Source: Acidimicrobiia bacterium (GTDB lineage Bacteria > Actinomycetota > Acidimicrobiia > Spongiisociales > ZC4RG35). From it: a DNA stretch of 64,000 nucleotides. Positions 3,183 to 37,575 of the stretch are shown piece after piece. The translations under genes and the position numbers were made by a program. Each line of letters opens with the position of its first letter. The stretch's first letter is position 1. The notes below the pieces were generated by a model. The model was not told where the DNA came from and made no database searches. It worked only from the letters and a program-made list of their open reading frames with translations. The stretch lies in the NCBI GenBank assembly GCA_035544575.1, contig DATKEC010000117.1:11865-75864 (forward strand), in the 5' to 3' direction.

Positions 3183-3284
3183 GCAACCGATTCTAGGCAG
3201 ACTGAGACCGTTCCTGGAAACGTTTTTCGGCTACTCTCACCAACTAGTTTCCAATCCGTCTTCGACGGCCATGGGAGGACTGGC

Positions 3285-8408: not shown

Positions 8409-9977
8409 TCAGCCGGACAACGATACGTTCGTCAGGAACAAATGACCCTGTGTGTGGGCGATGAGTCCCGCAACGGATGCGGCCGTCGTCACCGGCGAGA
8501 GTCGGCCGCCGAGCACGATCTCAGGCTGACCTTCCATCGCCATTGCTTGTAGCTCCAGAATGGCGTTCCGGTAATCCTCGTCGCTCGGCATGGAACGCGC
8601 CTCGGTGAGCAGGTCGTAGAACTCCGGCCGCTGATCGATCCACCCGAGCGCCTCGGTGAACAGTTTGTTGTACGGGTGCGAGAGCAGGTCGTACTCGTCG
8701 GGCTTCGGAACCATGGCGCACAGCGCGAGATCGAAGTTGCCGGCGTCGTCGCCCAACGTGCGTGCCACGTACGTCCCTACATCGAGAACGCTGATCGTGA
8801 TGTCGATCCCGACCTCGGCGAGTTGGCTCTGCACCGCTTGAGCCAGTGTCTCGAACTGGAACCCCAGGCCACACACGATCATCTCGCCGCCTTCGACTCC
8901 ATCGGAGAACCCGGCCTCTGCCACCAGCGCCTGCGCCGTCTCGAGGTCGCGCTCGTTGTAAGAAGCGGCATCGGCGTTGAAGAAGGCCGGGTTGGCCTCC
9001 ATCGGGTTCGACAACACCTGCATGAAGCCGAACAGGCTGCGCGAGAGCGCCTGCCGGTCGAGTGCGTTGCTGACTGCCTGTCGAAGCTCCTGATTGTCCC
9101 ACGGAGCACGACGCGTGTTGATGTGGAAGTGATACAGACCCGAGTTGAACCCCTCCGGAGGCGTCAGAATCTGAAGTCCGGCCTGCTGCAGGGTGGCGAT
9201 CTCTCCGAGCGGCGTGTCCGCCAGCACCTGAACCTCGTTCGTCCGGATCTGCAGGGACTGCACGGTTCCGTCGGGGACCGTGCGATAGATCACGCCGTCC
9301 AGGTATGGGAGGCCATCCTGCCAGTAGTCGGGATTCCGCTCGACTTCGACCTGTTGGTTCCGCTCCCAGGACACGAACTTGAACGGACCGGTGCCCACGG
9401 GTGTCTCGGCGAGGTCGATCGTCGTGTCTTGTGGTGAGATGTAGACGTCCACCATCGTGCTCAGCAGAACCCGATCAGGTTCTGAGAGACGGATCTCCAC
9501 GGTCCGATCGTCGACGGCGACAGTCTCCGTCACACGGGCCAGCAGCGGTGCGGTTCGACCCGCCTCCGGTTCTGTCGCCCGGCCCATCGAAGCCACAACG
9601 TCCTCGGCGTCGAACTCAGACCCATCGTGGAAGACGACGTCATCCCGCAGGTTGAACGTCCACACCAGACCGTCCGCGGATGCGGACCAGTCCGTGGCGA
9701 GGCTTCCCACGATTTCATAGCTCGTGAGATCGAACTCGACGAGGGTGTCGTAGATGTTCGTGATGATGTTCCGGTCGTTCGTCGAACCGAAACGGTTCGG
9801 GTGAAGACCCGTCGGGTCGGCCGACTGGGCGATGACCAGGACGCCACCCGCGGTCGGCTCGGACGGTCCCGATCCGGTCGTGGTGGTGGCATCGTCTTCG
9901 CCACCGACACTGCTGCAAGCAGTGACGATCATCGCCAACGCCAAGAGCAGGGCCATCGAAGCTCGTATCCGCTGCAC
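8409..9977 (-). CDS. ABC transporter substrate-binding lipoprotein, family 5 (DppA/OppA-like).
   Basis: 522 aa with an N-terminal signal peptide and lipobox (MIVTAC). It is the first gene of the operon. Confidence 0.85.
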   Translation of the reverse strand: MQRIRASMALLLALAMIVTACSSVGGEDDATTTTGSGPSEPTAGGVLVIAQSADPTGLHPNRFGSTNDRNIITNIYDTLVEFDLTSYEIVGSLATDWSASADGLVWTFNLRDDVVFHDGSEFDAEDVVASMGRATEPEAGRTAPLLARVTETVAVDDRTVEIRLSEPDRVLLSTMVDVYISPQDTTIDLAETPVGTGPFKFVSWERNQQVEVERNPDYWQDGLPYLDGVIYRTVPDGTVQSLQIRTNEVQVLADTPLGEIATLQQAGLQILTPPEGFNSGLYHFHINTRRAPWDNQELRQAVSNALDRQALSRSLFGFMQVLSNPMEANPAFFNADAASYNERDLETAQALVAEAGFSDGVEGGEMIVCGLGFQFETLAQAVQSQLAEVGIDITISVLDVGTYVARTLGDDAGNFDLALCAMVPKPDEYDLLSHPYNKLFTEALGWIDQRPEFYDLLTEARSMPSDEDYRNAILELQAMAMEGQPEIVLGGRLSPVTTAASVAGLIAHTQGHLFLTNVSLSG

Positions 9978-10066
9978 TAAGTACCTCCTCGGAGTGTCAA
10001 CCTCGGGTGTCGATGTCGGGCGACCGACGGTCAGTTGATGTCAGACCGATCACCCGCTGTGAAATC

Positions 10067-10087
10067 GGAATCGTGGGAAACGATTCC
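10067..10087. promoter_or_regulatory. Candidate operator: GGAATCG-n7-CGATTCC inverted repeat.
   Basis: The sequence ggaatcgtgggaaacgattcc lies in the 316-bp divergent region between the SBP gene and the CoA-transferase gene. Confidence 0.35.
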
Positions 10088-10186
10088 AACCGCGCCGACA
10101 ATAGCGACGCTCCGAGCTGGCCGTCAACACATCGGAGCGAGACACCGCAGACGGACGTCATCCAGCGCCCGTCTGCGCCACTCACT

Positions 10187-10202
10187 CCGGAATCGATTCT
10201 GG
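10187..10202. promoter_or_regulatory. Candidate operator: near-perfect 16-bp palindrome CCGGAATCGATTCTGG.
   Basis: Read directly from the sequence. Same motif family as the other boxes in this window. Confidence 0.4.
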
Positions 10203-10228
10203 CGTTGTCCGTTCGGCGATTGCTGGGA

Positions 10229-10270
10229 CTACGACCTCATCCTAGAAACGTTTCTAGGATGAGGTCGTAG
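10229..10270. promoter_or_regulatory. Perfect 42-bp palindrome (21 + 21) centred on AAACGTTT, ending 24 nt upstream of the CoA-transferase start codon. Probable operator.
   Basis: The sequence ctacgacctcatcctagaaac gtttctaggatgaggtcgtag was verified base by base with no mismatches. It creates two spurious mirror ORFs that both end in YDLILETFLG. Confidence 0.6.
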
Positions 10271-10293
10271 TTCGTACCAAACTGGATGGAGCG

Positions 10294-11556
10294 ATGAACC
10301 CCCCCACCGAGGACACTCGACCCCCTACGAGGCCAGCGCCCCTCTCCGACGTGCGTGTACTTGCAGTCGAACAGTACGGTGCGGGCCCTTTCGGCACTCT
10401 GCAACTCGCCGACCTCGGCGCCGAAGTCATCAAAATCGAGGATCCTCGTTCCGGCGGAGACGTCAGCCGCTACGTCCCGCCATTCCAGGACGGGGAGCAC
10501 AGTCTGTTCTTCGAGTCGTTCAACCGAAACAAGCGGAGCTTGGGCCTCGACATCTCCAACCCCGCCGGGCGCCGGGTGTTCGAAGATCTCGTCGCCGTCT
10601 CCGACGTCGTGTACTCCAACCTTCGCGGCGACGTCCCCGCCCGGCTCCGGCTTCGCTACGCCGACCTGGCGGACGTCAACCCGGCGATCGTCTGCGTCTC
10701 ATTGTCCGGATTCGGCATGACCGGACCCCGCGTGGCCGAACCAGGCTACGACCCGATTCTTCAGGCGCTGGCTGGGTGGATGAGTGTCACGGGCGACCCG
10801 GCCGGGCCGCCCACCAAATCGGGACTGTCGCTAGTTGATTATGCGGGCGGATACGTCGCCGCGATTTCACTACTCGCCGCGCTTCATGCCGCGCGGCGTG
10901 ACGGCATCGGCATGGACTGCGACGTCAGCCTCTACGACACCGCCATCAGCCTTCTCACCTACCCGGCGATCTGGTACCTCAACGGCGGACTCATACCCGA
11001 GCGCAAGGCGAACTCGGCTCATCCCTCCCTCATCCCTTTTCAGGCATTCGAGGCGGCAGACGGATGGCTCACCGTCGCTTGCGCCAAAGAGAAGTTCTGG
11101 CAGCGCCTCGTCGTCGTGCTCGGGCTACCGGAACTCACCACCGATCCCCGGTTTTCCGACTTCGACGCTCGGAGGGAACACGCAGCCAGCCTCGGACCGA
11201 TCCTCGAGGGAGCCTTTCGTACCGACACGGTCGCGGGGTGGGTTGATCGTCTGGCAGACGCCGGAGTACCCACCGCCCCTGTCCAGTCCCTCCCCGAGGC
11301 ACTGACGGACGCCCATACTCTCGCCCGCGACCTCATCGTCGAGACCGACCATCCACTGTTCGGGCCGATCCGCCAGGTCGCCAGTTCGGTCCGGGCAGGT
11401 AACTCGATCACGGATCACCGACCCGGACCCGCGCGCAACGAGGCGTCGGACTACGCCCTGTCCACGATCCTCGGCTATGACCAGCGGACCATCGCCGCGC
11501 TCACCGCGGAAGGAGCGTTCGGCGAGGTTTCCGCTGAGTCCAAAGACTGCCGATGA
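10294..11556 (+). CDS. Family III CoA-transferase (CaiB/BaiF family).
   Basis: 420 aa with N-terminus LSDVRVLAVEQYGAGPFGTLQLADLGAEVIKIE. GGATGGAG RBS upstream. Confidence 0.85.
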   Translation: MNPPTEDTRPPTRPAPLSDVRVLAVEQYGAGPFGTLQLADLGAEVIKIEDPRSGGDVSRYVPPFQDGEHSLFFESFNRNKRSLGLDISNPAGRRVFEDLVAVSDVVYSNLRGDVPARLRLRYADLADVNPAIVCVSLSGFGMTGPRVAEPGYDPILQALAGWMSVTGDPAGPPTKSGLSLVDYAGGYVAAISLLAALHAARRDGIGMDCDVSLYDTAISLLTYPAIWYLNGGLIPERKANSAHPSLIPFQAFEAADGWLTVACAKEKFWQRLVVVLGLPELTTDPRFSDFDARREHAASLGPILEGAFRTDTVAGWVDRLADAGVPTAPVQSLPEALTDAHTLARDLIVETDHPLFGPIRQVASSVRAGNSITDHRPGPARNEASDYALSTILGYDQRTIAALTAEGAFGEVSAESKDCR

Positions 11557-11636: not shown

Positions 11637-11684
11637 CATCCGAGCCCAGGGAGTTGCGTGCACAGCGGAGAAAACAACCCCACG

Positions 11685-12683
11685 ATGAAGGAAGTGGCGT
11701 CTCGCGCTGGCGTCGCGCTCTCCTCCGTCTCCCGAGTTCTCAACCACCATCCCGACGTGAGCGAACGCATGCGCCGGCGAGTTCTGAACGCGGTCGACGA
11801 CCTCGGCTATGAGCCGAACCTTGTCGCGTCGAGCCTGCGCCGCGGGTCGACCCATACGATCGGCTTCGTCGTCTCCGACATCTCCAACCCGCTGTTCGCA
11901 GACTTCACGAAGGGAGCGGGTGACCGGCTCCATGCCGCCGGCTATTCGATGGTGCTCACCAACGCCGGAAGCGACCCGGAACAAGATGAAGCGATGATCC
12001 GCCTCCTCCGCTGGAGGAGGGTGGACGGCCTGATCACGTCGCTCGCAGACGAGTCCCGCCCAGATACGATCGCCGAACTCCAGCGGATAGAAGTCCCCAT
12101 CGTTCTACTCGACCGGTTCGTCGACGAACTTCCGAATGCCTCTGTCATCAGTGCCGAACACGCCTCGGGGATGACAGAGGCGACGGCGCAGTTGCTCGCC
12201 CTCGGCCACCGCCGCATCGCCTTGATCTCCGGATCCCCCCGCATCCGGCCTCCGAACGAGCGGGTGGAGGGCTTCCGACGGGCATTCGACCGCTTCCGTA
12301 TCCCGTACCCATCCGACCTCGTGCGTCTGGGGAGCTTCTCGCCGGAGTTCGGGACACGTTCCACCACTGAATTGCTCGCCTTGCCCGAGCCGCCAACGGC
12401 GATCATCTCTGGTGGCAACTTGTTGCTGACGGGCGTGTTGCGAGCGTTGCGGAGCGCCGCGCTGCATCCGGGTCGGGACATCGCGATAATCTCCTGCGAC
12501 GACGTCGCGCTCGCGGAACTGCACACCCCGCCTATCACTGTGATCGCCCGCGACACGGTCCGAATGGGCGAGTTGGCAGCGGAGTTGATGCTGGAGCGCC
12601 TCGCATCCGAGGATGCTCCGCCCCGCGTCGAACGCGTGCCCACCACCGTCGTGATGCGCGAGTCGACTTTCCCGCTGAGGTAG
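11685..12683 (+). CDS. LacI-family transcriptional regulator. The ORF-track start at GTG 11658 is also possible.
   Basis: N-terminal HTH MKEVASRAGVALSSVSRVLNHHPDVSERMRRRVLNAVDDLGYEPNLVASSLR followed by a periplasmic-binding-fold sugar-binding domain. Confidence 0.85.
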   Translation: MKEVASRAGVALSSVSRVLNHHPDVSERMRRRVLNAVDDLGYEPNLVASSLRRGSTHTIGFVVSDISNPLFADFTKGAGDRLHAAGYSMVLTNAGSDPEQDEAMIRLLRWRRVDGLITSLADESRPDTIAELQRIEVPIVLLDRFVDELPNASVISAEHASGMTEATAQLLALGHRRIALISGSPRIRPPNERVEGFRRAFDRFRIPYPSDLVRLGSFSPEFGTRSTTELLALPEPPTAIISGGNLLLTGVLRALRSAALHPGRDIAIISCDDVALAELHTPPITVIARDTVRMGELAAELMLERLASEDAPPRVERVPTTVVMRESTFPLR

Positions 12684-12945: not shown

Positions 12946-13929
12946 CTAGGCGTACACATTGCGGAACATCGCGGCGGGCTCGGGGAAGGGTGACTCCTTC
13001 ACCTGAGCTACCAACTCCTCGAGTGCTCCGCCGACCGCTTTCTCGAGTTGCTCTGCGGATTCCGCAGTGAGCACTCCCTCGTCGATCAGTCTGGCGCGGA
13101 ACGTGTTGATCGGATCCCGCTCGTACCACCTCTCGAACTCACCTGGGACCCGATAGGGAGCGGTGTCGGCCCGGGAATGGCCGGCATAGCGGTAGGTCTT
13201 TGCTTCGAGCAGGCTCGGCCCGTCGCCGGCACGCGCCCGGGCGAGGGCTGTGTTCATCGCCTGTTCGACCGCGTCGGGGTCCTGGCCATTCACGATCACA
13301 CCCGGGATGCCGTACGACACCGCTCGGTCGGCGAGATCCTCGATGGGTGTCGTGACATCGATCCGGCTGTATTCGCCGTACTGGTTGTTCTCGCAGACGA
13401 ACACCACAGGGAGCTTCCAGATGGCGGCCAGGTTGATTCCCTCGTGGAATGCACCGATGTTCGAGGCGCCGTCACCGAAGACCGCAATCGCGGCATCGTC
13501 GGTTCCGTTCACCTGAGCAGTCAGCGCGGCGCCCGCGGCCACGGGAATGCCTGCGCCGATGATCGCGAACGTCGGAAGAAGACCCACCTCGGGCTCGCAC
13601 AGATGCATGGAGCCGCCCACACCTCCCACCGATCCACCCACACGACCCATGATCTCGGCGAGGACGCTCTCTCCGGTCACACCCAATGCAAGCGCCACAC
13701 CGTGACCTCGATAGGTACAGGTCACCTGATCGGTGGGCCGAGCGGCCGCGGCGATGCCCACGGCAACCGCCTCCTGACCCTGGCAGGTATGAGTGGTACC
13801 GTGGACGATCCCCTCGGCGAACAGATCCTTGACACGATCCTCGAACGAGCGGATCTCCACCATCCGGCGGAACCGCTCTACGCGATCGGTCTGCAATGCC
13901 CTCCGGCGCTCGAGCGGAACTGAACTCAT
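12946..13929 (-). CDS. TPP-dependent 2-oxoacid/acetoin dehydrogenase E1 component, alpha subunit.
   Basis: TPP-binding motif GDGASNIGAFHEGINLAAIWKLPVVFVCENNQY. The start at 13929 forms an ATGA overlap with the E1-beta stop. Confidence 0.85.
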   Translation of the reverse strand: MSSVPLERRRALQTDRVERFRRMVEIRSFEDRVKDLFAEGIVHGTTHTCQGQEAVAVGIAAAARPTDQVTCTYRGHGVALALGVTGESVLAEIMGRVGGSVGGVGGSMHLCEPEVGLLPTFAIIGAGIPVAAGAALTAQVNGTDDAAIAVFGDGASNIGAFHEGINLAAIWKLPVVFVCENNQYGEYSRIDVTTPIEDLADRAVSYGIPGVIVNGQDPDAVEQAMNTALARARAGDGPSLLEAKTYRYAGHSRADTAPYRVPGEFERWYERDPINTFRARLIDEGVLTAESAEQLEKAVGGALEELVAQVKESPFPEPAAMFRNVYA

Positions 13930-14939
13930 CTCGACTCCTTCTTCTTCCACCACGGAGACGGGAGAGAACCCGTCGCCAGTAGCTCGTCGACCTGGCTCAC
14001 CACGTACTCGGCGGAGGGAAGAAAACGGGCCTCGAGTTCCTTGCCGAACGGGACAGGGACATCTGGACAGGTGATGCGGGTGATCGGCGCCGTGAGATGC
14101 CGGAAGCCCTCACCGGCCAACCGGGCAGCGACCTCGACCCCCCATCCGCCGGTGAAAGGAGACTCTTCCACGAGTACGAGACGGCCTGTGCGCTCCACCG
14201 AGAACAGGACCGCCTCGACGTCCCAGGGCAGGAGAGATCGCAGGTCGATGACGTCTGCCGACCACGACGCCATCGCCGTAGCTTCGAGGACGGTGCGAAC
14301 CATCGCCCCGAGCGTGACGATCGTGACATCGTCTCCTGACTCCGCGAGCTGGGCAGAACCGAGCTGCACGAGTTGGTCATCGCCGGTCTCGACGTCGCCC
14401 CTGGTGGCGTAGAGCACCCGGGGCTCGAGGACGACGACGGGATTGGGATCGCGGATCGCCGACCGGATCAGCCCATAGGCGTTCTGGGGGCTGGAGGCCA
14501 CGGCCAGCTTGAGGCCGGGCGTGGCGAACATCCACGTTTCGAGCGTCTGTGAGTGTTGTGCCCCAAAGCCGAGTCCTGCACCGACCGACGCTCGCACAAC
14601 CATCGGCACGGTCACCTTCCCGCCCGAGAGGTAATGGAACTTGGCCGCCTCGGTCGACACCTGATCGAGGGCGACTCCGAGAAACTCCACGAACATGATC
14701 TCGACCACGGGGCGCAGGCCGGTGCAGGCGGCGCCGACCGCCGCCCCGACGAATCCCATCTCGGAGATCGGAGTGTCGCGTACGCGCAGCGGCCCGAACT
14801 CGTCGAGCAGACCATCCGAGGTCTTGAATGGTCCTCCCGCTGCTGCGACGTCCTCGCCGAGCACGACGACGGACGCGTCGGCCCGCATCTCGTCGGCGAT
14901 ACCCGCCGCAATCGCCTGGTTCATTCGCATCTTGGGCAT
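13926..14939 (-). CDS. 2-oxoacid/acetoin dehydrogenase E1 component, beta subunit.
   Basis: Real start MPKMRMNQAIAAGIADEMRADASVVVLGEDV at 14939. The ORF-track N-terminal extension is Arg/Ser-rich junk. The protein has a transketolase-like fold. Confidence 0.85.
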   Translation of the reverse strand: MPKMRMNQAIAAGIADEMRADASVVVLGEDVAAAGGPFKTSDGLLDEFGPLRVRDTPISEMGFVGAAVGAACTGLRPVVEIMFVEFLGVALDQVSTEAAKFHYLSGGKVTVPMVVRASVGAGLGFGAQHSQTLETWMFATPGLKLAVASSPQNAYGLIRSAIRDPNPVVVLEPRVLYATRGDVETGDDQLVQLGSAQLAESGDDVTIVTLGAMVRTVLEATAMASWSADVIDLRSLLPWDVEAVLFSVERTGRLVLVEESPFTGGWGVEVAARLAGEGFRHLTAPITRITCPDVPVPFGKELEARFLPSAEYVVSQVDELLATGSLPSPWWKKKESR

Positions 14940-14975
14940 GGTTCTCCTCTCGGTGCGGCGACTATAGCGACGGGT

Positions 14976-14991
14976 CCGGAAACGTATCCAT
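14976..14991. promoter_or_regulatory. Candidate operator box tccggaaacgtatcca upstream of the E1-beta/alpha/lipoyl operon.
   Basis: Same GGAAACG-type core as the other boxes. Located in the 103-bp gap 14940-15042. Confidence 0.3.
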
Positions 14992-15042
14992 CCGCCCAAG
15001 AGGTGGGAAACGGAAGACCAAGCCAGCTCCGGGCGGTACCTT

Positions 15043-16341
15043 TCAGCTTGCCGGGACCCCTGCCTGATGGAGGATGAGCTCGGAAACGGGATCATCCTCC
15101 CACCCATCGAATGTACCCATCCGGAGGCGGATTTCGTCCACGTCGAGCGGCCTTCCCGCTCGCACGACGAGGCGGATGTCCCCGAGTGCGAGGATGTCGA
15201 CGAGCGGATCGGCCCGGACGACGACGACGTCGGCGCGGTACCCAGGCGCCAGCGCGCCAACCTGGTCGCCGACCCCAAGCGCGGCGGCGGCGTGCACCGT
15301 GGCAGCGGCGAGGGCTTCGTGCGGTCGCAGACCCGCATCCACCATCAGCGCCAGTTCGTCGTGCAGGCCGAATCCGGGGACGATATTCGGCCACGGTGCG
15401 TCTGAACCGGCGATGACCCGACAGCCTGCCGCATGGAGTGTCTGCAAGATCGACTTCATCGCCACGGCACTCCCTTGTCGGGCGAGGCGTTCTTCGGCAG
15501 ACCCTGTGCGATGGGGGAACCGGGACCAGGCATCGAGGATGCCCGGATGAACCCACTCTCGACGCCTGTCGTTTGCGAACACCATGTCGTTGACCGTCGC
15601 GAGACGGTCCCAGACCACGAGGGTCGGGCACAACGTCGTGCCTGCGGCGAGGAGGCGTTCTGCGATGTCGGCGGTCTCATCCGCCGGAACCGTCGGCCCG
15701 TCGACGTGATGCACACAACCCGACAGATGCTCGAGTTCTGCGACCCCGCCTGCCAGCGCCTCAGCGAGCGATGAGACGCCAAGGTGAGCGAGCACGTCCA
15801 GACCCACGCCGCGAGCGGTCTCGACGGCGGCCGCGATCTGGGCCGGCGTGACGTTCACGTAGAGTTTCACGGCGTCGACACCGGCAGCCGCGAGTTCACG
15901 CACCGACATGCGGATCGCCTCGACGTCGACGTGTGATCGGCCGATCGTGGGCCACCAGGCCTGCTCGCCGTCGAGCAGCGGTCCCGTGCAGAGTATGGTC
16001 GGGCCGGATGTCGGGTCCTCGGTGGTTCGGCGCCGCCGTTCCAGGATCCAGTCGAGGCGGTTGCCCGTGTCGCGTACGGTGGTGACACCTGCCGCCAGCA
16101 GTCCCGGAAGCATCCAATCCGCCAAATGCACGTGAGAGTCGATGAGCCCCGGAACGGCGGTCCCCTGCACCTCCACCCGGCGCACGCCGGACGGGGAACC
16201 CGGTTGAATCGACGTGATTCGGTCCCCGTCGATCATCAACGCATGCCGTTCGATGATCCGATGGCCGTCCCAAATCCTGTCCGGGATCAGGGCCCATCTG
16301 TCCGGGATCAGGGCCCATCGTTCAGGGATGTCGTCGCTCAT
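15043..16341 (-). CDS. Amidohydrolase-family metal-dependent hydrolase. The real start is at 16341 (MSDDIPERW...).
   Basis: Contains the HVH metal-binding motif (GLIDSHVHLADW) and an amidohydrolase-like C-terminus. Strong GGAGGAGGA RBS upstream of 16341. A 21-bp in-frame tandem duplication lies near the N-terminus. Confidence 0.75.
   Translation of the reverse strand: MSDDIPERWALIPDRWALIPDRIWDGHRIIERHALMIDGDRITSIQPGSPSGVRRVEVQGTAVPGLIDSHVHLADWMLPGLLAAGVTTVRDTGNRLDWILERRRRTTEDPTSGPTILCTGPLLDGEQAWWPTIGRSHVDVEAIRMSVRELAAAGVDAVKLYVNVTPAQIAAAVETARGVGLDVLAHLGVSSLAEALAGGVAELEHLSGCVHHVDGPTVPADETADIAERLLAAGTTLCPTLVVWDRLATVNDMVFANDRRREWVHPGILDAWSRFPHRTGSAEERLARQGSAVAMKSILQTLHAAGCRVIAGSDAPWPNIVPGFGLHDELALMVDAGLRPHEALAAATVHAAAALGVGDQVGALAPGYRADVVVVRADPLVDILALGDIRLVVRAGRPLDVDEIRLRMGTFDGWEDDPVSELILHQAGVPAS
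16277..16318. repeat. Perfect 21-bp tandem duplication (2 copies) inside the amidohydrolase coding sequence. It encodes WALIPDR twice.
   Basis: The unit ctgtccgggatcagggcccat is repeated exactly at 16277-16297 and 16298-16318. Confidence 0.9.
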
Positions 16342-16458
16342 CTGCTCCTCCTCCGGGGAACCACGCCTCTCTCGCCCCACAGTCGCTCCGGGCGACGTGG
16401 CAGCGTACGTGCTGGCCGATGCGCTTCGGTCTCGACGAGCGCCGACCACCAACGTGGA

Positions 16459-21772: not shown

Positions 21773-22719
21773 TCCGGTTCGCCCTGGAACGGATCATCGG
21801 CCTGATCCTCGTACTGTTCGCCGTCTCCGCCATCGTGTTCGGGCTCGGGTCGCTGATACCCGGAGATCTCGCCACGGTGCTGGTGGGTTCGGAAGGCGCA
21901 ACCCCAGAGCAGTTCGAGAGGGTTCGTGAGGAACTCGGGCTGAACGACCCACTCGTCGTGCAGTACGGCCGCTGGATGGGTGGTGTCGTCCAGGGTGACT
22001 TCGGCGTCTCACCCATCACCGGCCGCTCCGTGAATGGGGAACTCGCCTCTCAGGTGCCCGTGTCCCTCGAACTCACGATCCTCGCACTCGCCGTCTCTAC
22101 GCTCATCGGAATTCCCATGGGAATCCTGGCAGCCGTCCACGCCAACAATGCCTGGGACTTCGTGATTCGTGCCGCTCTCTTGATAGGGTTCTCGGTGCCG
22201 ATCTTCGTCGCCGGGATCCTCCTGCTGTTGTTTGGATCCAAGTATCTGACTCCGCTGTATGCAGCCTCCTACACACCAATCTCGGAGGGCATCGTCGAGA
22301 ATCTGCGGAGCATGGTCTTCCCGGTCATGTCGATCGCTATCCCGGTGGCCGCCATGACGATGCAAATGACGCGGACGAGCATGCTGGAGACTCTCGGACA
22401 GCACTACATCACAATGGCGCGAGCCAAAGGGGCGCGGCGGCCGAACATCCTCTACATCCACGCTCTCAAGAACGCCATGTCACCCGTCCTGACGCTGCTC
22501 GGGTTCCAGTTCGGGATCCTCCTCGGCGGTCTGTTCGTGGTCGAGGCGATCTTCAGCCTCCCTGGCGTCGGACGGGGCCTGCTGGTGGCGATCGGGCAAC
22601 GGGACTACCCGCTCGTGATGGCGATCACCATGGTGATCGCCACCGCATTCGTCGTCGTCAATGTTCTCGTCGACCTGCTGTATCCGATACTCGACCCGCG
22701 ACAGAGAGCTGCACGATGA
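21769..22719 (+). CDS. Dpp/Opp-type ABC permease (DppB-like), paralog 2.
   Basis: Real start is the ATG at 21769 (MIRFALERIIGLILVLF), which forms an ATGA overlap. Confidence 0.85.
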   Translation: MIRFALERIIGLILVLFAVSAIVFGLGSLIPGDLATVLVGSEGATPEQFERVREELGLNDPLVVQYGRWMGGVVQGDFGVSPITGRSVNGELASQVPVSLELTILALAVSTLIGIPMGILAAVHANNAWDFVIRAALLIGFSVPIFVAGILLLLFGSKYLTPLYAASYTPISEGIVENLRSMVFPVMSIAIPVAAMTMQMTRTSMLETLGQHYITMARAKGARRPNILYIHALKNAMSPVLTLLGFQFGILLGGLFVVEAIFSLPGVGRGLLVAIGQRDYPLVMAITMVIATAFVVVNVLVDLLYPILDPRQRAAR

Positions 22720-35414: not shown

Positions 35415-36473
35415 TCAGCTCGGTCGGATGAGGTCGGGTGTGATCTCCTCGACCGTCCGTGCGCCACACAGCGCCATGGTCAACTCCAACTCCTCGGCGA
35501 GGTGTCGCAGAACCTGTTCGACACCGGACGCGCCGCCGACAGCCAGTCCCCACATCACCGGCCGACCAACGAGCACGACGTCGGCACCCAGGGCCAGCGC
35601 CTTGAACACGTCCCCACCGCGTCGAACCCCTCCATCCACCATCACCGTTGTGGCGCCTCCGACCGCGTCCCTCACCTCGGGAAGAGCCTCCATCGACGGG
35701 ATCACGGAATCGAGTTGACGCCCACCGTGGTTCGATACGATCACCGCCTCTGCCCCCTCGGCGGCCGCCCGGGCAGCGTCGTCAGCGCGCACGATCCCCT
35801 TCAGCATGAGCGGAAGATCGGTCAGCCCCCGCAGCCAACCAACGTCGTCCCACGTCAGGGACGGGTCCCACAGTTCGGTGGCGCCGGCGCCGGCTGCCGC
35901 CGGCGGTGTGAGGCCGTAGAACGGCTCGTGGCCCGCAGCGAACCACTCCGGACGGACTTCGAATCCGTGACGGCGCTCGGCGATCCGTCCACCCACGACG
36001 GGCGCGTCGACGGTCACCACCAATCCGCTACAGCCCGCCGCCTGAGCTCGGTGGAGCACCTCGGCCGTGCGAACCCGATCCTTCCCTACGTACGCCTGGA
36101 ACCACACCGGACCCGACGCGGCGGCCATCACCTCCTCGACCGGTAGCGACGATCCGAGGCTGAGCACCAGGATCGTGCCCGCCGCCGCGGCTGCGCGGGC
36201 TGTGGCCCGTTCACCGTCGGCGTGCGAGATCCGGTGCATCGCGGTGGGGGCCAGGATCACGGGGAGGTCGATCTCGTGGCCGAGCACCGAGGTCTTCGTC
36301 GACCGGTGAGAAACGTCGACCAGTACCTTCGGGAGCAGCCGAATCGCATCGAACGCGGCGGCATTGGCATCCCGCGTCCTCCCCTCACCGGCGGCGCCTG
36401 AAACGAACGCGGCCCCCGATGGACCAAGGATGTCAACTGCCGCCGCTTCGAAGTCAGCGAGCGTCAGCAGCAT
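35415..36473 (-). CDS. FMN-dependent alpha-hydroxy acid dehydrogenase/oxidase (lactate/glycolate oxidase family).
   Basis: Real start at 36473 (MLLTLADFEAAA...). The ORF-track upstream extension is junk. Family motifs are present. Confidence 0.8.
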   Translation of the reverse strand: MLLTLADFEAAAVDILGPSGAAFVSGAAGEGRTRDANAAAFDAIRLLPKVLVDVSHRSTKTSVLGHEIDLPVILAPTAMHRISHADGERATARAAAAAGTILVLSLGSSLPVEEVMAAASGPVWFQAYVGKDRVRTAEVLHRAQAAGCSGLVVTVDAPVVGGRIAERRHGFEVRPEWFAAGHEPFYGLTPPAAAGAGATELWDPSLTWDDVGWLRGLTDLPLMLKGIVRADDAARAAAEGAEAVIVSNHGGRQLDSVIPSMEALPEVRDAVGGATTVMVDGGVRRGGDVFKALALGADVVLVGRPVMWGLAVGGASGVEQVLRHLAEELELTMALCGARTVEEITPDLIRPS

Positions 36474-36488
36474 TCGCCGATCGTACCT

Positions 36489-36518
36489 GGATACGATTCT
36501 TGGATACGATTCCAATCG
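36489..36518. promoter_or_regulatory. Direct repeat of GGATACGATTC (2 copies) followed by CAATCG. Candidate operator in the divergent region.
   Basis: The sequence ggatacgattc tt ggatacgattc caatcg was read directly. Confidence 0.4.
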
Positions 36519-36678
36519 TCCATGATTGCGCGACCTGACTGTCCAAACGATGTGGTTGGCCCTCGGACCGGGCCAGCCACCTCCGACGCTGTGAGCGAGG
36601 AGCCCCAATGGCACCACCAGAACCACCGACTCCGCCCCTGCGGACGAGAGATCGGGTGGATCTAGGGAGACGACACAG

Positions 36679-37575
36679 GTGAATCGGGGATCCTGGGCGG
36701 CGCTCTGGGCGCTGAGCGTCGGTTGGGGAACTGTCGGCGTGGCAACGCGTGCGGCGCTCGAGAACGGGGTCGGCAGCCTCACCATCGTCGCCGGGCGCCT
36801 CGTCATCGCCACCGCTCTCGTCGCCGCCGCCCAGTTGTTCCTGCGGCGCCGGATGTCGTGGGATCCGACCCTCGTTCGGACGGGGACGGTCATGGCCATC
36901 GTCGGTGTGGCGATGCCGTACGTGCTCTTCAACTACGCCTACAAGTACGCCTCGGCTGGATTCGTTGGACTGATGGCGGCGCTGGCACCGCTGGGCACCG
37001 CCATCTTCGCCCACTTTCTGCTACCCGGTGAGAGGATCGGCCGCCGCCGGCTGTTCGGATTGAGTTTGGCCATCGCCGGCGTTGCCGTGCTGCTCTTGGC
37101 AGGAGACAGTGGGCTGGCGGTCGGCGGTCGGCCATCGCTGGCGATCGCTTGGTCGATACCGGGCGTGGCGGCGTTCTCCTTCTCCACGGTGTACGCCAAG
37201 CGCCAGACCGCGTCACTCGCCGGATTCGACGTGTTGGTCGTCCAGTTCGCGGTGGCGACGGCCCTGATGCTTGCCCCGACCTTCCTGATGGAGGGAGTGC
37301 CTCGCCTCGACGCCGAATCGTGGTGGCTCCTCGTTTACCTGGCGATCGGCTCCACCGTCGTCCCGCTGATGCTGTTCTACTGGGTGCTCCAGCGAAACAC
37401 CGCTGCCCAGACGGCGTTGGTCGGCTTCATCGTTCCACTCGTCGCGGTCATCGCCGGCGTCGTGCTCATGAGCGAGAAGGTCGGAACGGGTCTCATCCTC
37501 GGAGGCGCCGCCATCATCACGGGGGTGATCGTCGCGGACAGAAGCGGGCGTGATGCCACCACCGTCCCAGCTTGA
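36679..37575 (+). CDS. DMT-superfamily (EamA-like) transporter.
   Basis: GTG start with a GGGAGA RBS. About 10 predicted TM helices in two EamA-like halves. Confidence 0.75.
   Translation: MNRGSWAALWALSVGWGTVGVATRAALENGVGSLTIVAGRLVIATALVAAAQLFLRRRMSWDPTLVRTGTVMAIVGVAMPYVLFNYAYKYASAGFVGLMAALAPLGTAIFAHFLLPGERIGRRRLFGLSLAIAGVAVLLLAGDSGLAVGGRPSLAIAWSIPGVAAFSFSTVYAKRQTASLAGFDVLVVQFAVATALMLAPTFLMEGVPRLDAESWWLLVYLAIGSTVVPLMLFYWVLQRNTAAQTALVGFIVPLVAVIAGVVLMSEKVGTGLILGGAAIITGVIVADRSGRDATTVPA

Follow-up and report, generated by a model that had tools for sequence, protein, structure and literature searches.

A 44-bp perfect palindrome around a conserved LacI-type operator-like core in a divergent promoter region of an uncultured Acidimicrobiia genome

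The analysed stretch of DNA, 64 kb in length (hereafter the window), belongs to an Acidimicrobiia genome that was assembled from a metagenome (proteins HVR33656.1 and HVR33657.1). Its minus strand carries a dpp-type ABC operon, which encodes a solute-binding protein (SBP), two ATPases, and two permeases. Divergently from this operon, the plus strand carries the genes of a CoA-transferase and a LacI/GalR-family regulator (Table 1). Past the regulator gene, the minus strand encodes the alpha and beta subunits of a 2-oxoacid dehydrogenase E1, an amidohydrolase, and a class-III aminotransferase. A perfect palindrome lies to the right of the dpp-type operon, in the divergent promoter region between this operon and the CoA-transferase gene, which confirms the location given in an earlier, sequence-only reading of this DNA. 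An exact look-up of the SBP protein returned no record; a different start call for the gene is the probable reason.

Table 1 Features of the palindrome locus in window coordinates
Feature	Position	Strand	Remarks
Family-5 solute-binding protein (SBP) gene	8409-9977	-	Heads the divergent dpp-type ABC operon
Operator-like box O1	10076-10087	none	GGAAACGATTCC; just downstream of the predicted dpp -10
Predicted dpp promoter	10098-10127	-	-35 TTGACG 10127-10122, 18-nt spacer, -10 TATTGT 10103-10098
Operator-like box O2	about 10189-10200	none	GGAATCGATTCT; invariant as CGGAAWCGATTC in six aligned lineages
44-bp palindrome	10228-10271	none	Outer 13 nt of each arm (10228-10240, 10259-10271) lineage-specific
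Operator O3 (predicted)	10241-10258	none	18-bp core CCTAGAAACGTTTCTAGG; even palindrome with central CG
Putative -10 TAGGAT, CoA-transferase/LacI promoter	10255-10260	+	Overlaps the right half of O3
Ribosome-binding region, CoA-transferase	10282-10292	+	Conserved CTGGATGGAGC; island CTGGA.GGAGC invariant in the alignment
Family III (CaiB/BaiF) CoA-transferase gene	10294-11556	+	First gene downstream of the palindrome
LacI/GalR-family regulator gene	11658-12683	+	HTH and periplasmic-binding-protein fold; presumed cognate repressor

The regulator is the single LacI homologue in the 64-kb window. It is a full-length LacI/GalR protein of 341 aa with the domains PF00356 and Peripla_BP, and its nearest types are RbsR, CcpA, and PurR. 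Its alignment with E. coli LacI covers residues 5-330 of 360, and the C-terminal tetramerisation helix of LacI sits past the aligned region. Since the alignment ends at residue 330, the regulator has no room for this helix and, judged from its sequence, looks like a dimer-type member of the LacI family.

The palindrome is observed directly in the sequence. It has no spacer, and its two 22-nt arms, ACTACGACCTCATCCTAGAAAC and GTTTCTAGGATGAGGTCGTAGT, are 100% complementary around the centre AAACGTTT. The sequence-only reading had described a perfect 42-bp palindrome at 10229-10270 with 21 of 21 matching positions, which is correct and one base short on each side (44 bp, 22 of 22). Likewise, its end at 10270 does lie 24 nt before the CoA-transferase ATG at 10294, and the full palindrome ends 23 nt ahead of this codon. 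Scanned exhaustively, the window contains no more than eight perfect palindromes whose arms reach 7 nt, among which the 44-bp palindrome is by far the longest and the runner-up has arms of 12 nt. Given a symmetric functional core of 14-18 bp, the chance of 13-15 additional perfect pairs is approximately 4^-13, and the 44-bp palindrome is not a chance feature. The runner-up, TGGCGATCACCATGGTGATCGCCA (24 bp, window 22619-22642), is located within the reading frames of the second Dpp-type operon or at their junction.

Because the genome was assembled from a metagenome and palindromes confuse assemblers, an assembly artefact was considered together with a remnant of a mobile or repeated element (a MITE, REP-like ends, or a recombination site), for which a transposase gene near the locus in one relative, L082, might speak. 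A contig from a second assembler, Logan contig L001 (SRR8556377), encodes the same CoA-transferase without any difference, and its sequence begins at window 10242. Logan uses k = 31. By our own calculation, a k = 31 unitig that comes from the right must stop at 10220 plus the arm length, since each 31-mer within the palindrome falls on the same graph node as its mirror image. Arms of 22 nt predict a break at 10242, which is exactly the observed start of L001. In the intergenic alignment, both flanks of the palindrome are orthologous to the flanks of its relatives, and the palindrome is therefore not a fold-back misassembly, which would mirror a whole flank rather than 13 bp. Neither the window nor the 180 fetched loci contained a credible second copy of the outer-arm 15-mer (the copy in L001 is the same locus); within the window it has only coding-like matches, one at two and six at three mismatches. 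A megablast search of a plasmid collection also gave no match. The palindrome is not an assembly artefact, and an origin as either an artefact or a mobile-element remnant is, taken as a whole, extremely unlikely.

To place the palindrome in an evolutionary context, 11 syntenic relatives with CoA-transferase identities of 79-92% were compared, with the window as the twelfth lineage. Close relatives were obtained via a protein database search, cluster members, and contig look-ups, and L096 and L097 via protein-anchored scans. CoA-transferase identity to the window is approximately 92% in L082, L096, and L179, 91% in L176/177 and L180, 90% in L083 and L084-86, 88% in L087, 82% in L097, 80% in L088-91, and 79% in L092-95. 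In a neighbour-joining tree of the CoA-transferase gene, the window is sister to the clade of L082, L096, L179, L176, and L180 (200 of 200 bootstraps), followed by L083/L084, then L087, and then the lineages at 79-82%; even the nearest relative is approximately 10.5% diverged in CoA-transferase DNA. Protein-anchored scans of species-genome and JGI collections returned mostly CoA-transferases of at most 68% identity, none with the operator core, and a comparable upstream palindrome is absent from the genome-set CoA-transferase homologues at this level of identity. The gene order SBP, CoA-transferase, and LacI, or a trimmed form of it, is present in all 11 relatives. The LacI gene is linked to the CoA-transferase gene across the relatives, with a gene for an AMP-binding enzyme between them in L084-86 (L084:3585-4538, L085:3600-4553, L086:3816-4769). 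In L082, a DDE_3 transposase gene directly follows the LacI gene (L082:8440-9219), and the spacer between the SBP and CoA-transferase genes is much longer, at 817 nt.

The inner part of the palindrome is conserved. In all 12 lineages, the motif T[A/C]GAAACGTTTCTAG[G/T/A]AT occupies the same place ahead of the CoA-transferase gene. Within it, the 11 aligned lineages (79-92% protein identity) carry T.GAAACGTTTCTAG without change, and the twelfth, L083, has the same core. GAAACGTTTC together with its flanks forms an even palindrome with a central CG, the centre of which lies 44 nt before the ATG. Motifs of LacI-family regulators are even palindromes of 16-22 nt with a central CG, located mostly 30-140 bp upstream of a start codon, and local regulators of this family are mostly autoregulated (PMC4052901). 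The core, O3, resembles LacI/GalR operators in its length and central CG, in its position, in its linkage to a regulator gene, and in its conservation in orthologous promoters. The inner 14-18 bp at the palindrome centre are thus most likely an ordinary LacI-type repressor site that overlaps a promoter.

The overlapping promoter is suggested by a -10-like hexamer, which reads TAGGAT in the majority of lineages, with TAGTAT in L087 and TAGAAT in both L097 and L180, so that only position 4 varies. The left mirror of the hexamer is variable (ATCC, TTCC, CGCC, GGCC, TGGC, AGGT, GCTG, or GCCA), and conservation reaches further out on the right side of the core than on the left. Since the hexamer keeps TA..AT, varies at its fourth base, and is conserved asymmetrically, it behaves like a -10 element rather than like a half of a symmetric operator. 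In Mycobacterium smegmatis, SigA prefers TANNNT as its -10 sequence, and transcription starts follow it at a distance of 6-13 nt (PMC6448022). The hexamer agrees with TANNNT and is asymmetrically conserved in all 12 lineages, although the rule is mycobacterial and is extrapolated here to Acidimicrobiia. From its position, we infer a transcription start near 10267, inside the right arm, and the mRNA would therefore not carry both arms of the palindrome.

Two further operator-like boxes and a promoter are predicted in the same intergenic region. The whole-intergenic alignment comprises six lineages and shows invariant islands in a spacer that otherwise aligns poorly. In this alignment, O1 coincides with an invariant island, GGAAACGATTCCAA (10076-10089). 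The dpp promoter was found by a consensus promoter scan; its -35 region is invariant in relatives as GCCGTCAA (10120-10127), and its -10 remains TANNNT, as TAGTCT or TATTCT. The spacing between O2 and O3 is 18, 19, 23, 31, 42, or 57 nt across lineages, the window having 42 nt. The idea that the 42-nt spacing of the window results from an insertion on the left was dropped, since relatives range from 18 to 57 nt.

Similar boxes recur elsewhere in the window. Allowing at most one mismatch, GGAAWCGWTTCC occurs seven times, compared to 0.63 expected copies, and none of 100 shuffled sequences reached seven. The claim that the inner 18 bp match a recurring box family thus holds for the 12-bp core and not for the full 18-mer, which has one other match in the window at up to three mismatches. 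All seven copies lie at the 5′ edge of reading frames when domain starts are used. The genes concerned encode an enolase-superfamily dehydratase, two Dpp-type systems, the E1 operon, a BhcC-like aldolase, a 2-hydroxyacid dehydrogenase, and an FMN-dependent dehydrogenase. Boxes resembling GGAAWCGWTTCC lie at 3216, 10076, 10189, 10244, 14978, 17915, 26447, 34888, 36489, 36502, and 42907. Some longest-ORF calls are over-extended at the 5′ end (E1 beta, 13926-15338; amidohydrolase, 15043-16452; FMN-dependent dehydrogenase, 35415-36932). Their Pfam domains start at residue 136 (E1 beta), approximately residue 54 (amidohydrolase), and residue 173 (FMN-dependent dehydrogenase), and the E1 beta of relatives has 337 aa. 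With the over-extension taken into account, the boxes at 14978 and 36489-36513 lie upstream of genes rather than inside them. One LacI gene together with many boxes suggests a catabolic island under a single regulator, the substrate of which is probably amino-acid-derived or peptide-like.

In the regulatory scheme that we propose, a repressor dimer on O3 would block RNA polymerase at the overlapping -10 hexamer, and the regulator, encoded two genes downstream, would control its own synthesis via O3. With O2 upstream and O1 just downstream of the dpp promoter, both divergent operons may be placed under the same regulator, and the similar boxes elsewhere in the window may extend this control to a small catabolic regulon.

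In contrast to the inner 14-18 bp, the rest of the palindrome is not shared. None of the 11 related lineages has the 44-bp palindrome, and neither the sequence nor the symmetry of the outer 2 × 13 bp is conserved among them. At a fixed centre, the perfect arm of 22 nt in the window compares with 13 nt in L084-86 (17 of 18 pairs) and 10 nt in L083 (14 of 18), and none of the other nine lineages extends past 9 nt. The arm measures 9 nt in L176 and 8 nt in L082, L096, L179, and L180, so that the whole sister clade lacks the extension, and 5 nt in L087, L088, L097, and L092. Pairing over the helix of 22 pairs was counted in the eleven lineages of alignment A3, from which L083 was left out because its contig ends inside the left arm. 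Family-wide, 58.7% of these positions were paired, compared to 57.3% after shuffling, and 132 of 500 shuffles scored as high; each pair beyond position 9 is unpaired in 7-9 of the 11 lineages. A conserved structure was rejected on this basis, since the covariation test performed no better than shuffles.

The palindrome does fold well in the window itself. The single-stranded DNA gives -22 kcal/mol (z = -8.3 against shuffles), and the RNA of the central 60 nt gives approximately -40 kcal/mol. When only the flanks are shuffled, the z score of the fold is -8.2 in the window, -4.8 in L084, -3.4 in L096, -1.9 in L082, and near 0 in the rest. In L084, which has the extended palindrome of 17 of 18 pairs, none of 300 flank-shuffled sequences folded equally well. 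The signal in L096 and L082 has another source, namely a tandem duplication that adds another half-site and allows a different hairpin, with a shifted centre and a loop of 7 nt. This 13-nt duplication lies inside the operator at L082:5935-5978, L096:2434-2477, and L179:329-372, where the repeats read CTAGAgACGTTgg and CTAGAAACGTT.

Such folding raises the question of whether a very stable hairpin formed by the palindrome in the CoA-transferase 5′-UTR governs mRNA stability or translation. The RNA of 10200-10310 folds at -56 kcal/mol (z = -6.2), and its extended stem reaches the ribosome-binding region, which would favour such a role. On the other hand, TAGNAT at 10255-10260 implies a start near 10267, from which both arms would not be transcribed, and the consensus scan found no rightward promoter-like site upstream of the palindrome. 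The outer stem shows no covariation. The Rfam search returned only generic miRNA-hairpin matches far below the gathering scores, and a known RNA family was therefore rejected. No terminator-like site was found in 9800-10500, and an intrinsic terminator was rejected because the sequence past the stem, TCGTACCAAA, has no T-tract. Given outer arms that are unconserved in relatives and a likely start inside the right arm, we consider a 5′-UTR RNA hairpin, which the sequence-only reading had put forward, very unlikely.

The same reading had also suggested that the long palindrome could bind a higher-order repressor complex, and had named its absence or lack of conservation in close relatives, together with no binding by the local regulator, as what would count against its proposals. 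More generally, the whole 44 bp could be an enlarged protein site, either for a higher-order LacI-family assembly or for a second symmetric regulator, with which the presence of three boxes in one intergenic region and the symmetry of the outer arms are compatible. However, and counter to that reading by its own standard, the 44-bp palindrome is missing in 11 of 11 relatives that keep both the inner 14-18 bp and the same regulator gene nearby. The regulator is of the PurR/RbsR/CcpA type and lacks the LacI tetramerisation tail, LacI-family motifs span 16-22 nt (PMC4052901), and the outer-arm 15-mer lacks a credible second copy. An enlarged site is accordingly highly unlikely.

The right flank reads GGATGAGGTCGTAGT in the window and GGATGCCGGCAGTTC in L179, with agreement at only 3 of the 10 positions past GGATG. 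At most outer positions, each window arm departs from the corresponding flank in its closest relatives, but the two arms pair with each other at 15 of 15. Independent drift of the two flanks is thus ruled out, and either one arm was copied from the other or selection for pairing was very strong. The left arm of the window resembles the left arm of L084, and the last bases of the right arm, AGT, together with the following TC resemble the conserved AGTTC of the relatives. L084-86 and the window share the inner ATCC/GGAT and an AC/GT step, and they differ on both sides at four pairs (columns 2, 5, 6, and 10 of alignment A3).

We consider it fairly probable that the palindrome is an autoregulated LacI operator over a -10 element, the dyad of which has seeded the homogenisation and extension of the arms by template switching. 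The outer 13 bp of each arm would then lie outside the binding site and be the product of concerted arm evolution. During replication, the operator dyad would allow the growing strand to fold onto itself and take the other arm as its template (template switching, or quasi-palindrome correction), so that an imperfect inverted repeat would be homogenised and, solely in this lineage, extended to the perfect 22/22 palindrome. The two arms are exact reverse complements (22 of 22), although each differs from the orthologous flanks of relatives, and the extension is absent from the sister lineages. Template switching at quasi-palindromes is known to convert imperfect repeats into perfect ones, and perfect ones outlast expectation (Ripley 1982 and later E. 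coli work, reviewed in PMC5941160); at yeast promoters, transcription-factor sites have been described as seeds of expanding inverted repeats (PMC13100816).

As the starting point, we infer that the operator was already flanked by an imperfect inverted repeat in the clade of at least 90% identity, as suggested by the 17 of 18 pairs in L084-86. It would have been perfected and lengthened in the window lineage and lost via indels in the sister clade, in which the O2-O3 spacing varies between 18 and 57 nt. The tandem duplication and the varied O2-O3 spacing are a sign that the operator site is prone to small repeat-mediated rearrangements.

The both-side differences in L084-86 are also what selection for pairing would give, and the arms may instead be maintained as a DNA cruciform that is extruded under negative supercoiling and tunes one or both divergent promoters, or renders repression supercoiling-sensitive. 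The stable single-strand hairpin, the extended arms of different sequence in the window and L084-86, and the alternative hairpin with a shifted centre in L096 and L082 are in line with such a cruciform. The extension, however, is missing in the sister clade and in all lineages of no more than 88% identity, which nevertheless keep the operon, the operator, and the promoter, and no family-wide pairing excess was detected. Template-switch homogenisation, moreover, produces the same both-side differences without selection. A selected cruciform is therefore unlikely in our assessment. We are slightly more doubtful of the claim that the arms are under selection and kept paired through compensatory changes in at least two lineages (the window and L084-86), whether for supercoiling-coupled repression or as a mirrored minus-strand -10 for dpp. 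With regard to the latter, the perfect dyad mirrors TAGGAT onto the minus strand (10244-10239), pointing to the dpp operon. This mirror hexamer is present only in the window and L084-86 and may be an accidental second promoter.

The putative operator has parallels among known systems. Like the operators of PurR and RbsR, the cre sites of CcpA, and the symmetric lac operator, O3 is an even palindrome with a central CG that overlaps a promoter, adjoins a LacI-family gene that is probably autoregulated, and is accompanied by extra boxes that would define a local regulon. Unlike in these systems, the 14-18-bp core sits inside a 44-bp perfect palindrome. The associated genes also differ: instead of classical LacI sugar genes, they encode a CoA-transferase, a dpp-type transporter, a 2-oxoacid dehydrogenase E1, an amidohydrolase, and an aminotransferase.

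The outer arms have their parallel in quasi-palindrome correction (Ripley 1982; the E. coli thyA hotspot; PMC5941160), in which arms likewise evolve in concert and in a lineage-specific manner and an imperfect repeat becomes perfect and longer in one step. Perfect inverted repeats are conserved in Proteobacteria (PMC5941160). The present case differs in that the ancestral state is deduced, the organism is an uncultured member of the Acidimicrobiia, and the seed would be a transcription-factor operator. At the yeast GRE2 promoter (PMC13100816), the dyad of a dimeric factor similarly seeded an expanded inverted repeat with a possible effect on expression; that case is eukaryotic and experimentally tested, whereas ours is known from sequence alone.

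For annotation, the locus offers a predicted promoter and operator map with O1, O2, O3, a pair of divergent promoters, and a single LacI-type repressor that is probably autoregulated, and the box motif links eight or more promoters across this catabolic island of an uncultured member of the Acidimicrobiia. The comparison supports a LacI-type box in the divergent promoter and does not support a special significance of the palindrome length. The palindrome may be a natural example of a transcription-factor operator that has seeded a much longer perfect palindrome, and the perfection and length of a palindrome need not signal an extra function. It opens no new mechanism and is an ordinary palindrome of modest evolutionary interest.

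A fragment from a further relative at 91% identity, L178 (L178:189-600, JGI Ga0395772_0022515), joins window position ~3528 to ~10272. In this fragment, the first 81 codons of the enolase-superfamily gene (which begins at window 3285) are joined to TCACACCCAAACCTGGATGGAGC-ATG of the CoA-transferase gene; the fragment retains its own box, CCTGGAAACGTTTTTGG, and lacks the whole dpp operon and O1-O3. L178 is either a deletion of ~6.7 kb that ends at the operator or a chimeric metagenome contig, and its right junction falls at the position of the right end of the palindrome.
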